From Promethearchaeota archaeon (GTDB taxonomy: Archaea > Asgardarchaeota > Lokiarchaeia > Sigyniarchaeales > SOKP01): 64,000 nucleotides of DNA. Positions 6,822 through 18,162 of the stretch are shown piece by piece (within the stretch, counting starts at the first letter, position 1; each line of letters opens with the position of its first letter). Made by a program: the position numbers and the translations under genes. The stretch covers positions 130,800-194,799 of the forward strand of contig JBHLLT010000003.1 in the NCBI GenBank assembly GCA_048938855.1, in the 5' to 3' direction. A model generated the notes under the pieces. The model did not search any database. It was not told the DNA's origin and saw only the letters and a program-made list of their open reading frames with translations.

Positions 6822-8078
6822 TTGACTGATAAATTAAACCTTAACAATACTTTCAAATTATATCAGGAAGCCTTAGAATTAATTCCGGGTGCAATTTTAG
6901 GGATAAGACGACCATATAATTTTGTTGAAGGAGAATATCCTATATTCTTTGAATCTGCTAAAGGTGGAAAAGTAATTGATGTTGATGGTAATGAATATAT
7001 TGATATGTTATGTGCCTATGGGCCAATTATTATTGGACACAGAGAAGAAGAAATCGATAATGCAGTTATTGAGCAAATCCGTAATAAAGGATTTTGTATG
7101 TCCCTTACTCAACAAATACAAAATAAGCTAGCAAAGAAATTAAAGGATTTAATACCTTGCTGTGAAAAGATGGTATTAATGAAAATGGGTACTGATGCAA
7201 CTACTGCCGCGATCAGAGTAGCTAGAGCTTATACAAAAAAAATGAAGATTCTTAGTTGTGGATATCATGGATGGTATGATGCTTTCAGTGAGGTACATGG
7301 AATTGAAGCGGGAATACCTAAGAAATTATTTGAAGATTTTTATGAATTTAATTTTAATAATCTAGAGGAAATTGAGAATTTATTTAAAGAGAACAAAGAT
7401 GAAGTAGCAGCTATAATAATCAACCCAATACATACTCCAGGAGGTCGAGAAGTTGAAACGCCTGAGAATGGATACCTTGATGGACTTCGTGAATTAGCAG
7501 ATGAAAATAACGCGTTATTGATTTATGATGAGATAAGGACAGGTTTTAGAGTGGATATGGGTGGAGCACAAAAATTATTTGGAGTTCTTCCTGATTTAGC
7601 TGCATTTGGAAAAGCTATGGGAAATGGTTATCCTATAAGTACCCTTGTAGGTAAAGCAGAATTTATGGATGTTTTAGTTGAAAAAGTCTTTCTTAGCTCA
7701 ACTTTCTTCCCTAATAGTCTGGCTCAGGTTGCTTCTCTAAAAACAATTGAATTTCTTGAACGTGAGCATGTTTTAGAAAATATTCAGAAAAAAGGTGACT
7801 TTTTCGCAAAACAAGTCAAAGATCATATAAATGATACTAGAATTCCATGCAATTTTACAGGTGGTCCATGGATGCCTTATATTACATTCACACCCGATCC
7901 CAATTATCTATACAGAAAAATTCGAGAAGAATTTTATAAACAATTGATTCGTCGAAAAGTTTTTCTTCAACCATATCATCATGGATATATCGCATACCGG
8001 CATTCCAGTGAAGATTTAGATTATGCTTCAGAAATGATTTATGAATCGTTAAAAGAATGCAAAAAAATAACTAACTAA
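6822..8078 (+). CDS. kat: Class III PLP aminotransferase, probable 3-aminobutyryl-CoA aminotransferase
   Basis: GSA-AM-like fold (DVDGNEYID, DEIRTGFR, FGKAMGNG); N-terminal GIRRPYNFVEGEYPIF recalled from Kat; adjacent to kce/kdd/kam genes. TTG start. Confidence 0.7.
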   Translation: MTDKLNLNNTFKLYQEALELIPGAILGIRRPYNFVEGEYPIFFESAKGGKVIDVDGNEYIDMLCAYGPIIIGHREEEIDNAVIEQIRNKGFCMSLTQQIQNKLAKKLKDLIPCCEKMVLMKMGTDATTAAIRVARAYTKKMKILSCGYHGWYDAFSEVHGIEAGIPKKLFEDFYEFNFNNLEEIENLFKENKDEVAAIIINPIHTPGGREVETPENGYLDGLRELADENNALLIYDEIRTGFRVDMGGAQKLFGVLPDLAAFGKAMGNGYPISTLVGKAEFMDVLVEKVFLSSTFFPNSLAQVASLKTIEFLEREHVLENIQKKGDFFAKQVKDHINDTRIPCNFTGGPWMPYITFTPDPNYLYRKIREEFYKQLIRRKVFLQPYHHGYIAYRHSSEDLDYASEMIYESLKECKKITN

Positions 8079-9237
8079 TTTTTTTCTCTAACCTTAATTG
8101 TATTATTTTCTTGTCAGTATACCACCATACAACACCACAAGAGATGCAAATAGTCCAATTCAAAATTAATAAGGAAAAATTTATAAAAAGATTCTCAGTG
8201 GCGACCCCTATAATATTGACAATTGTTATCCCCCCTATTGATCCCCATATAGTCTCATGAATTATATAGGAGATAGTAAAATAAAGGTCTTGAACAAGAA
8301 ATATATGAAAAGTAGATCGACCAATTATTTTAAATGTTTTTGCTACCTTTTGGTTAGCAGTTTCTGGAATAAAATTCAGAAAGAGCAGGAATATGAAAGC
8401 AGAATATAGAAATGTTAAGGAATTGTAATCTCCCCTTAAAATACTTGCACCATTAATAGCTAAGCGAAAATTAAAGAAATCCCATGCTATCATGTACAGA
8501 GTGCTGACAGGGAAAAGTATCCATACAAAAAGATTCTTTTTAGTAAATATGCCTTGATATTTAGAAAGCCACATACCCATACCTAAAGCTGATACATACA
8601 ATAAGATTATATTTCGAAAATTAGCCTCCAGTAGAATTTCTTCAGGACTAGTTATATTTCCAACAACAAAAAACACTAATAAATGCATTAAAAACTCGAT
8701 AATAAAGCATAAAATCAGTGTAATTTTTGGCCATTTAGAAAAACTATAATATAATAAGGGCATTATAATTATCGATTGAAAAAGCACAGGTATAAACCAA
8801 TTTCCAGGACCTTGTAAGAGAGATTTTTGGAAGATAATATATTCCAAGAACCAATTTTCATTAAATATGCTAGGAAAAGAAAGACCATACAGAATAAACC
8901 CAATTAAAGTTCCAATAATATATAGAATAATATAAGGATAAACATAACGCCAAAATTTTTTTTTAAAATAACGCCAGGAATATAATTCTTTTAATTTTAG
9001 ATGACTTTCTTTAGAAAAAGACTTACCCATATTAAATCCCATAATTATTAGAAAAACTGGTATAGCAATTCTTTCCCATAATTGAAAGCCTAAACCATTT
9101 AAATTTGAATATACAAGAGAATGATCAATAATTACTAATCCAATCATTAAGGCTTTTAATAAGTCTATCTGAAAGAGTTTATCCTCTTTTAACGTTACTA
9201 TATTTGATTCCGTTGCCTCTATACTGTTTCCGTTCAA
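8071..9237 (-). CDS. Acyltransferase family 3 (OafA-like) multi-pass membrane protein
   Basis: QIDLLKALMIGLVIIDH, AIPVFLIIMG, GNWFIPVLFQ, IGRSTFHIFLVQ; about 10 TM helices. Confidence 0.85.
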   Translation of the reverse strand: MNGNSIEATESNIVTLKEDKLFQIDLLKALMIGLVIIDHSLVYSNLNGLGFQLWERIAIPVFLIIMGFNMGKSFSKESHLKLKELYSWRYFKKKFWRYVYPYIILYIIGTLIGFILYGLSFPSIFNENWFLEYIIFQKSLLQGPGNWFIPVLFQSIIIMPLLYYSFSKWPKITLILCFIIEFLMHLLVFFVVGNITSPEEILLEANFRNIILLYVSALGMGMWLSKYQGIFTKKNLFVWILFPVSTLYMIAWDFFNFRLAINGASILRGDYNSLTFLYSAFIFLLFLNFIPETANQKVAKTFKIIGRSTFHIFLVQDLYFTISYIIHETIWGSIGGITIVNIIGVATENLFINFSLLILNWTICISCGVVWWYTDKKIIQLRLEKKIS

Positions 9238-9399
9238 ATTTTATTAACTATTTCAAAAATTACTTACTAATTTATAGGAGAAGGTGCGTATTAAAATAAA
9301 CCATATTTTTATGTATAATTCCGAATAGGGTAGGATTAATAGACTATCACCCACTTAATAAGAGATTAAGTTTAAAATCATAGAAATATTGAAGATGGT

Positions 9400-17372: not shown

Positions 17373-17373
17373 T

Positions 17374-18162
17374 ATGGGAGGAGGCCTTTATTCTGCTGAA
17401 AATAAAAATTTTGATAAAAATTTAGATTTAACAAGAATTAAACCATATGGAGATACAATGAATGATGGAAAAGTGCAAATTAGTTTCACTCTTCCAATTG
17501 ATCATGATGAAAGAGCAATCGAAGCGGTTAAAAAACTCGTAGAGAAAATGGGCATCAAAGATCCTTTAGTTGCTTATCATACCTCATTAGATAAAGGATT
17601 TACCTATTTTGTCGTATATGGAGAGTTAATTCATACCATTGATTATACAAAAATTCTTGTTGAAACTGTAGATGTAGATATTATGCCTAAAGAGCAGATT
17701 AATGCCTATATTAAAGATAAAATAGGGCGTAAGCTTGTAATTTTAGGTGCATCTACGGGAGAGGATAGTCATACTGTTGGAATTGATGCAATTATTAATA
17801 TGAAAGGCTTTGCAGGACACTATGGTCTTGAACATTATGATATGATTGAAGCCTTTAACTTAGGAAGCCAAGTGTCAAATGAAGAGTTTGTTAAAAAGGC
17901 GATAGAACTTAATGCGGACGTTTTACTTGTCTCACAAACTGTTACACAAAAAAATATTCATATAAAAAATCTTACTCAGTTAGTTGACCTTTTAGAAGCA
18001 GAGGGAATAAGAGACAAGATTATTTTAATTTGTGGTGGTGCGAGAATAAGTAATGAATTGGCTAAAGAATTAGGATATGATGCCGGATTTGGCCCTGGAA
18101 CCTTTGCTGAAAATGTTGCTACTTACTTAGTTAAAGAGATTGTTAATCGAAAGAAACTGTAA
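17374..18162 (+). CDS. kamE: Lysine 5,6-aminomutase beta subunit (B12-binding)
   Basis: KPYGDTMNDG, DSHTVGIDAI (DxHxxG), MKGFAGHYGLE, LVSQTVTQ. Confidence 0.97.
   Translation: MGGGLYSAENKNFDKNLDLTRIKPYGDTMNDGKVQISFTLPIDHDERAIEAVKKLVEKMGIKDPLVAYHTSLDKGFTYFVVYGELIHTIDYTKILVETVDVDIMPKEQINAYIKDKIGRKLVILGASTGEDSHTVGIDAIINMKGFAGHYGLEHYDMIEAFNLGSQVSNEEFVKKAIELNADVLLVSQTVTQKNIHIKNLTQLVDLLEAEGIRDKIILICGGARISNELAKELGYDAGFGPGTFAENVATYLVKEIVNRKKL

Follow-up and report, generated by a model that had tools for sequence, protein, structure and literature searches.

A probable beta-lysine fermentation cluster of the Kat form in an Asgard archaeon, and the alternation of kal and kat at one gene position

Which enzyme carries 3-aminobutyryl-CoA onward in an archaeon whose lysine fermentation genes are accompanied by an aminotransferase gene and not by kal? 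The question is raised by a stretch of 64,000 nucleotides (the window hereafter; G000:C62:130800-194799), which is the end portion of a 194.8-kb contig in G000, a metagenome-assembled genome (MAG) of a Promethearchaeota archaeon (3.95 Mb, 93 contigs, 97% complete, 7% estimated contamination). An original prediction, made from the DNA letters, had read the window as an archaeal cluster in which the class III aminotransferase encoded at 6822-8078 acts as Kat, a transaminase replacing Kal. The host is indeed archaeal, an Asgard/Promethearchaeota lineage of a Loki-type order: a 16S fragment of G000, on a contig other than C62, scores 629 bits with the archaeal model versus 471 bits with the bacterial one, near-identical copies of window proteins are labelled Candidatus Lokiarchaeia, Thorarchaeota or Promethearchaeota archaeon, and the relatives of the genome agree. 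The open reading frames of the window were scanned with Pfam and NCBIfam profiles, NCBIfam equivalogs being judged by their curated cut-offs. We consider it quite probable that the window encodes the beta-lysine route in its Kat form, and that the cluster is of bacterial origin as a block in which kal and kat were later swapped repeatedly.

Six pathway genes above their NCBIfam cut-offs lie within 9 kb, all on the plus strand: kce (9400-10224; NF052387, 431 bits, cut-off 382; PF05853 over its full length), kdd for L-erythro-3,5-diaminohexanoate dehydrogenase (10998-12038; NF052381, 274 bits, cut-off 200), kamA for the radical S-adenosylmethionine (SAM) enzyme lysine 2,3-aminomutase (13404-14648; TIGR03820, 603 bits, cut-off 525; PF12544 and PF04055), kamB for the reactivase subunit of lysine 5,6-aminomutase (14705-15739; NF052386, 393 bits, cut-off 210), kamD (15798-17372; NF052384, 922 bits, cut-off 600; PF09043) and kamE (17374-18162; NF052385, 394 bits, cut-off 280; PF16554 and PF02310). 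All five enzymes of the lysine fermentation route, KamA, KamD, KamE, Kdd and Kce, are found between 9400 and 18162, and KamD hits the lysine 5,6-aminomutase structures 8T0V, 9Q1A and 1XRS with E-values of about 1e-250 to 1e-263. The putative kat (6822-8078, plus strand; PF00202, 199 bits) lies 1.3 kb upstream of kce and encodes a HemL-like class III pyridoxal phosphate (PLP) enzyme of 418 residues, the candidate 3-aminobutyryl-CoA:2-oxoglutarate aminotransferase. The gene set first listed for this locus is thus real.

By homology, KamA would convert lysine to beta-lysine, and the B12-dependent KamDE, accompanied by KamB, would then form 3,5-diaminohexanoate. Kdd would oxidise and deaminate this compound to 3-keto-5-aminohexanoate, from which Kce, with acetyl-CoA, would yield acetoacetate and 3-aminobutyryl-CoA. 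The HemL-like aminotransferase, judging from its family, its position and its complementarity with kal, would pass the beta-amino group to 2-oxoglutarate, giving acetoacetyl-CoA and glutamate, and glutamate dehydrogenase would presumably restore 2-oxoglutarate. A variant of this kind has been described in Cloacimonas and in digester Bacteroidetes, where a HemL-like class III aminotransferase likewise stands in for kal (Perret et al. 2011, PLoS One, PMC3149608; EC 2.6.1.111). CLOAM0809 of Ca. Cloacimonas acidaminovorans, which is HemL-like and encoded next to the thiolase CLOAM0810, was identified there as a 3-aminobutyryl-CoA:2-oxoglutarate aminotransferase with high specificity for 3-aminobutyryl-CoA; the HemL-like protein at the kal locus of the digester Bacteroidetes, about 65% identical to the Cloacimonas Kat, has the same activity (PMC3149608).

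The main argument comes from what occupies the kal position in the relatives. In G000 itself, no kal was found, as had been predicted: the Kal model NF052388 has no match anywhere in this 97%-complete genome, and the fused Kal-Kce model NF052389 matches through its Kce half only, with nothing for the Kal half. The wider phylum was sampled with 251 evenly drawn genomes, in which the order carrying the lysine cluster is made up of families f1 and f2. The KamD profile is matched in 39 genomes of this single order (33 of 54 in f1, 5 of 5 in f2, plus G000) and in 0 of the 192 genomes sampled elsewhere in the phylum. Kal occurs in 11 genomes of the sample, all f1, and Kat, at an identity of at least 64%, in 30 genomes, all f1 or f2. 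Of the 39 KamD-positive genomes, Kat without Kal is found in 27, Kal without Kat in 10 and the two together in none; in the remaining two, which have neither, the contig ends at kamD or kamA and the slot is unassembled.

Gene order tells where the exchange takes place. All 11 Kal-type loci, one of them from the same genus as G000, are arranged as (hyp526)-kal-kce-(methyltransferase)-kdd-kamA-kamB-kamD-kamE, hyp526 being a conserved gene at the upstream border of the cluster; the window and 26 of 28 Asgard Kat loci follow the order (hyp526)-kat-...-kce-... Because these gene orders are shared, kal and kat occupy the same position of an otherwise orthologous cluster. The slot between hyp526 and kce thus holds a 129-residue hot-dog-fold Kal in the Kal-type clusters and the 418-residue aminotransferase in the window; the products differ accordingly, crotonyl-CoA and NH3 for Kal, acetoacetyl-CoA and glutamate for Kat. 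Promethearchaeum syntrophicum MK-D1 and the Kal-type sister genomes belong to this Asgard order and have orthologous kce, kdd, kamA, kamB, kamD and kamE, in the sister genomes also with hyp526 at the flank; in G171, which belongs to the same genus as G000, these six genes are 59-90% identical to those of the window. In a tree of concatenated Kce, Kdd, KamA, KamD and KamE, the Asgard clusters are monophyletic (support 100) and Kal-type rows are interspersed with Kat-type ones, which takes six kal/kat changes, five of which are forced by strongly supported branches. The bacterial outgroups of this tree were picked via Kat and are therefore uninformative on whether kal or kat is the ancestral state. 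Once the cluster had entered one Asgard order from bacteria, kal and kat would repeatedly have replaced each other at the same slot. Such a complementary replacement in place is what is expected if Kal and Kat handle the same intermediate, and it is the strongest non-biochemical evidence for Kat. One further case is the single-contig genome G213 (4.36 Mb), which has kat and kamC, no Kal and no detected hyp526, in an order that differs from that of the DSAG12 table.

The family to which the aminotransferase belongs leads to the same assignment. A scan for Kat relatives with one genome per species gave 565 of them, and the best 80, comprising 28 Asgard and 52 bacterial loci, were analysed. The 28 Asgard proteins are 68-85% identical to the window protein, and the bacterial Kat family members among these best 80 are 59-67% identical to it. 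Bacterial loci come from many Cloacimonadota (three Ca. Cloacimonas sp., Syntrophosphaera) as well as from Bacteroidales, Lentimicrobiaceae, Elusimicrobiota, Bdellovibrionota, Desulfobacterales, one spirochaete and one Bipolaricaulota; in the Cloacimonadaceae loci, a thiolase gene lies immediately upstream of kat, as in the CLOAM0810/0809 pair. The best 120 homologues listed for the window protein are all Asgard-like. The representative of its 50%-identity cluster, P0155, bears the IMG name '3-aminobutanoyl-CoA transaminase', and P0042, an 86% identical homologue, was deposited as '3-aminobutyryl-CoA aminotransferase'. In a Kat tree with a HemL-like outgroup, the 82 Kat-like rows all group together, apart from the HemL-like representatives; the main Asgard clade (29 rows, SH-aLRT 100) is nested in a group (97) that also contains Elusimicrobiota and Bdellovibrionota. 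The PLP lysine and aspartate in the Bacillus subtilis glutamate-1-semialdehyde aminomutase (GSAM) structure 3BS8, which we take to be the Schiff-base lysine and the pyridine-binding aspartate, have K264 and D236 as their aligned counterparts, and both are invariant in alignment A1. Identity, tree, slot and missing kal together mark the protein as a Kat-family member in the kal slot. That it transaminates 3-aminobutyryl-CoA, a reaction expected of a Kat with CoA esters only, is suggested by its family, by where its gene lies and by its complementarity with kal.

Several observations weigh against this proposal. The Kat orthologues of Ca. Cloacimonas spp. and Bacteroidales, 60-62% identical to the window protein, are same-genus or same-order orthologues of the assayed CLOAM0809 and DIG1_60031. 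Strain NaphS2, which lacks the lysine genes, has a 60%-identical Kat homologue (Perret et al., PMC3149608), and an identity of about 60% is therefore no guarantee of substrate. In the 251-genome sample, three genomes have kat without a detected kamD. One of these, the 100% complete G083, keeps only hyp526-kat-kce-methyltransferase (L106, G083:C66), with no kdd or kam gene beside and no KamD found, so that this locus is either a remnant or a sign that Kat and Kce are used outside lysine fermentation. Sustained activity of KamDE is not assured when kamC is missing, as it is here. The search for CoA-transferases that the original prediction called for gave a two-subunit PF01144 pair on contig C60 of G000, with weak scores (35 and 53 bits) and distant from the cluster, and tblastn with the Bacteroidales ScoB on the same genome gave nothing. 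Finally, a topology that unites all bacterial Kat in a single clade is not rejected by an approximately unbiased (AU) test on Kat (p = 0.135).

Some of these points would fit an enzyme of the Kat family whose substrate is a different beta-amino-acyl-CoA or beta-amino acid, with an unrecognised enzyme taking care of 3-aminobutyryl-CoA. Kat homologues do occur where the full lysine set is missing, in NaphS2 and in the Desulfobacterales loci L073 and L092, G083 retains kat-kce with no kam genes, and NCBIfam has no curated Kat model. We nevertheless regard this explanation as unlikely, since kat sits exactly in the kal slot, the two genes are strictly complementary (27 versus 10 genomes, none with both), kat stands beside kce in 26 of 28 Asgard and in 17 bacterial loci, the proposed substrate being what Kce produces, and Cloacimonas and the digester Bacteroidetes, the lineages of the tested Kat, fall inside the same family clade. 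In L073 and L092, the gene immediately preceding that of the Kat homologue encodes a kamA-like radical SAM aminomutase, and there is no further lysine gene within 10 kb. This arrangement may explain the 'orphan' homologue of NaphS2, and hints at another beta-amino acid route.

A very improbable alternative is that 6822-8078 encodes a true HemL serving tetrapyrrole or corrinoid synthesis, placed by chance beside a B12-dependent pathway. Among its named matches in NCBIfam and the PDB, the best are indeed glutamate-1-semialdehyde aminomutases, and homologues carry the JGI label 'glutamate-1-semialdehyde aminotransferase'. Yet the protein falls below every HemL cut-off (275 bits versus 527 for TIGR00713, 278 versus 398 for NF000818, the cut-offs spanning 398-637), it is only about 35-38% identical to solved GSAMs and true HemL as against 60-67% to the Kat family, and it belongs to a clade of its own on the Kat tree. 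No porphobilinogen synthase (ALAD, PF00490) was found in the 97%-complete G000, by a search whose control finds ALAD in 11 of 14 reference genomes; a genuine HemL would therefore have no pathway to serve. Cloacimonas is similar in having no tetrapyrrole pathway to justify a real HemL, and Perret et al. argued in the same way for its Kat (PMC3149608). With the HemL cut-offs missed, no ALAD and no kal, the case of a true aminomutase with kal located elsewhere, which the original prediction had itself raised, does not agree with the genome. No gene of G000 passes a HemL cut-off, the HemL-like genes numbering two, with scores of about 275 bits. Contig C25 also encodes a second HemL-like aminotransferase, which is very divergent (G000:C25:33278-34543, L007). 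It also follows from the missing ALAD that KamDE and the corrinoid proteins of the organism probably depend on imported corrinoid.

That the cluster lies on a bacterial contig mis-binned into an archaeal MAG is hardly credible: the 7% estimated contamination, the location of the 16S fragment on a different contig and the 60-70% identity of the pathway genes to Bacteroidales genes would allow it. Against it, 28 Asgard loci from independent assemblies carry the cluster, mostly with the archaeal-only hyp526 and in one case on a contig of 912 kb, and the single-contig 4.36-Mb genome has it without detected hyp526; on the concatenated tree, the Asgard clusters make up a clade (100) separate from the bacterial ones, and GC content is uniform at about 30% throughout the window.

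The Kat-form cluster was likely taken up from bacteria as a block, with its direction of transfer and donor inferred from the patterns that follow. A bacterial origin is most economical because the cluster is confined to one Asgard order versus at least 8 bacterial phyla, and because its gene order is Bacteroidales-like. Indeed, the Bacteroidales loci L062, L069, L070, L083 and L095 have the order kat-kce-kdd-kamA-kamB-...-kamD-kamE of the window; written out for five Bacteroidota loci (four Bacteroidales, one Tannerella sp.), it is kat-kce-kdd-kamA-kamB-kamC-kamD-kamE, with scoB and a thiolase gene next in three of them, and their cluster proteins are 59-71% identical to those of the window. 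Compared with the bacterial Kat variant as a whole, Kat is 60-67% and Kce, Kdd, KamA, KamD and KamE are 60-71% identical. The differences lie in the archaeal host, in what is missing from the window cluster, namely kamC, a CoA-transferase of the scoB/atoA type and a bacterial-type thiolase, and in what is added, namely an acyltransferase, a methyltransferase and a 2-hydroxyacid dehydrogenase, next to the archaeal-only neighbour hyp526. The best Kat tree also agrees with acquisition from bacteria. The predicted gain from bacteria is thus favoured by distribution, gene order and this tree, its direction staying statistically unsettled in view of the AU test, and the bacterial sample was chosen via Kat and is without the Kal-type Bacillota and Fusobacteriota.

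What would become of the acetoacetyl-CoA? As far as the account of Fusobacterium nucleatum and Clostridium sticklandii given in PMC3149608 goes (Kreimeyer et al. 2007), steps 1-4 of the canonical route are alike (KamA, KamDE, Kdd, Kce), and the route continues through Kal, Bcd and a butyrate:acetoacetate CoA-transferase to butyrate and is redox-balanced; by comparison with that account, the Kat route yields two extra reducing equivalents unless acetoacetyl-CoA gives butyrate. Kat together with glutamate dehydrogenase would turn lysine into two acetoacetyl units, and these into up to three acetate, with 2 NH3 and two NAD(P)H, and the Kal route would be redox-balanced with acetate and butyrate as products. 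The genome inventory of G000 is compatible with such an outcome. It has one glutamate dehydrogenase, twelve thiolase-domain matches (at most 31% identical to the Bacteroidales thiolase by tblastn), two ADP-forming acetyl-CoA synthetase-type genes and two NiFe hydrogenases. Thiolases and ADP-forming acetyl-CoA synthetase may thus deliver acetate and ATP, and the two extra reducing equivalents may leave as H2, through the hydrogenases and syntrophy, or as butyrate, through Hbd-like enzymes and Acd-Etf. The earlier suggestion that no butyrate is formed is not supported: G000 has five homologues of 3-hydroxyacyl-CoA dehydrogenase and 16 of acyl-CoA dehydrogenase, two of the latter belonging to Acd-EtfBA sets, and because these are present, reduction of acetoacetyl-CoA to butyrate is possible. 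Butyrate formation from acetoacetyl-CoA was likewise proposed for Cloacimonas by Perret et al. (PMC3149608).

The KamDE step raises a question of its own, that of reactivation. KamC, the reactivase ATPase, is the usual partner of KamB. In G000, no KamC (NF052383) exceeds the cut-off of 300; the best match, at 211 bits (G000:C79:61881-63239), is a 973-residue MutS-like gene found throughout the phylum, and the matches of about 200 bits are generally to a MutS-like gene of 900-990 residues, present phylum-wide with or without KamD. The gap between kamB and kamD measures 58 bp in the window, with no kamC between, and in the window and the 33 KamD-positive f1 genomes alike, kamB directly precedes kamD without kamC. 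A KamC over the cut-off is found in 3 of the 251 sampled Asgard genomes, all of f2 genus g9 and next to kamD, and also in the Bacteroidales loci. In the Bdellovibrionota Kat-type clusters L046-L049 and L053, ordered kdd ... kamD-kamE-kat-kce, there is no kamB match.

A wider, joint reading can be formulated, which we hold to be tentative and rather doubtful: the kal/kat slot would be a switch between two lysine lifestyles, in organisms whose B12-dependent aminomutase works with KamB only and is reactivated differently. The Kal form would be internally redox-balanced and make butyrate, and the Kat form would oxidise lysine fully to three acetate and hand four electrons to an H2- or formate-consuming partner, so that the repeated swaps in place would follow the dependence on a syntrophic partner. 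The lineage would have lost the KamC ATPase and kept KamB alone, which would imply a reactivation unlike the annotated two-part one.

The remaining genes of the locus show that the Kat-form cluster is not one unbroken operon. An acyltransferase_3 membrane protein gene (8071-9237, minus strand; PF01757, eight hydrophobic segments) separates kat from kce, a SAM-dependent methyltransferase gene (10255-10965, plus strand; Methyltransf_25/11) lies between kce and kdd, and a gene of the D-2-hydroxyacid dehydrogenase family (12049-13056, minus strand; PF02826/PF00389) between kdd and kamA; with these interspersed genes, two of them on the minus strand, there must therefore be at least three plus-strand transcription units. 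The acyltransferase is probably not part of the lysine pathway, and it is seen at the kat-kce position in some relatives only (L018, L026, L027, L030, L098). The dehydrogenase has no NCBIfam equivalog over its cut-off, and among the analysed loci its insertion is limited to those of the nearest relatives (L017, L018, L023). The methyltransferase is more widespread, with 55-78% identical copies at the same place in many Kat-type and Kal-type Asgard loci, and was not found in the Bacteroidales loci of the same gene order. At the upstream border of both cluster types, hyp526 (4795-6375, plus strand) encodes a conserved soluble hypothetical protein of 526 residues with no Pfam or NCBIfam match and no predicted transmembrane helix; a role as transporter was rejected, as it has no hydrophobic segments. 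In most Asgard loci it is the neighbour of kat or kal, with an identity of 62-91%, and among atlas neighbours its family is archaeal only (Promethearchaeota, Bathyarchaeota, Thermoproteota).

On the other side, a PHP-domain gene follows kamE. Convergent to the cluster end, a gene on the minus strand (19212-20531) encodes an EamA/DMT-type transporter, with about 9-10 hydrophobic segments, fused to a C-terminal Lrp/AsnC ligand-binding domain, which may be an amino-acid-sensing transporter. A neighbouring island of amino-acid catabolism extends over 25416-38318, with genes for an ornithine aminotransferase (25416-26678), a carbamate-kinase-like protein (26681-27598), an ornithine carbamoyltransferase (30195-31127), an amidohydrolase, an FAD oxidoreductase and a 2Fe-2S/pyridine-nucleotide oxidoreductase (32850-36101) and an aldehyde:ferredoxin oxidoreductase (36138-38318). 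The first of these, as the second class III aminotransferase of the window, was considered as a candidate Kat and rejected, since its TIGR01885 score of 529 bits (cut-off 378) identifies it as an ornithine aminotransferase. Upstream of hyp526, the minus strand (938-4628) carries the gene of a corrinoid-binding protein (938-1585; B12-binding and B12-binding_2) and three short-chain dehydrogenase/reductase (SDR) genes (1658-2515, 2971-3789, 3816-4628), which match no specific family over its cut-off. The SDR pair beside hyp526 is kept in the relatives L013 and L014; these enzymes could act as reductases of a 3-oxo acid or of its CoA ester. No RNA family was detected in the 64 kb by an Rfam scan, and no tRNA by a tRNA scan.

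The pathway itself can no longer be presented as new to archaea, since its Kal form is already annotated for MK-D1, with kamA, kamD, kamE, kdd, kce and kal listed (Imachi et al. 2020, Nature, PMC7015854, Supplementary Table 4). A literature search on Asgard lysine fermentation, the aminomutases and 3-aminobutyryl-CoA found no Kat in Asgard archaea and only the Kal form described; one Thaumarchaeota paper names a putative Kat and Kal, without the remaining pathway. What the locus adds is a repeated non-orthologous replacement at one slot and a new lineage of hosts for a pathway variant that was already known, not a new mechanism. It extends a bacterial pathway variant to archaea, and the Kat form is the commoner one in the sampled Loki-type order (27 genomes versus 10 with Kal). 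Asgard MAGs probably contain thousands of mistaken 'glutamate-1-semialdehyde aminotransferase' annotations. With no ALAD found, these organisms appear to need imported corrinoid for a B12-dependent lysine pathway, and lysine could be a useful substrate for their enrichment. Their cultured relatives live by syntrophic amino-acid degradation, and amino-acid routes and H2 release feed the models of Asgard ecology and of the syntrophy proposed for the origin of eukaryotes.

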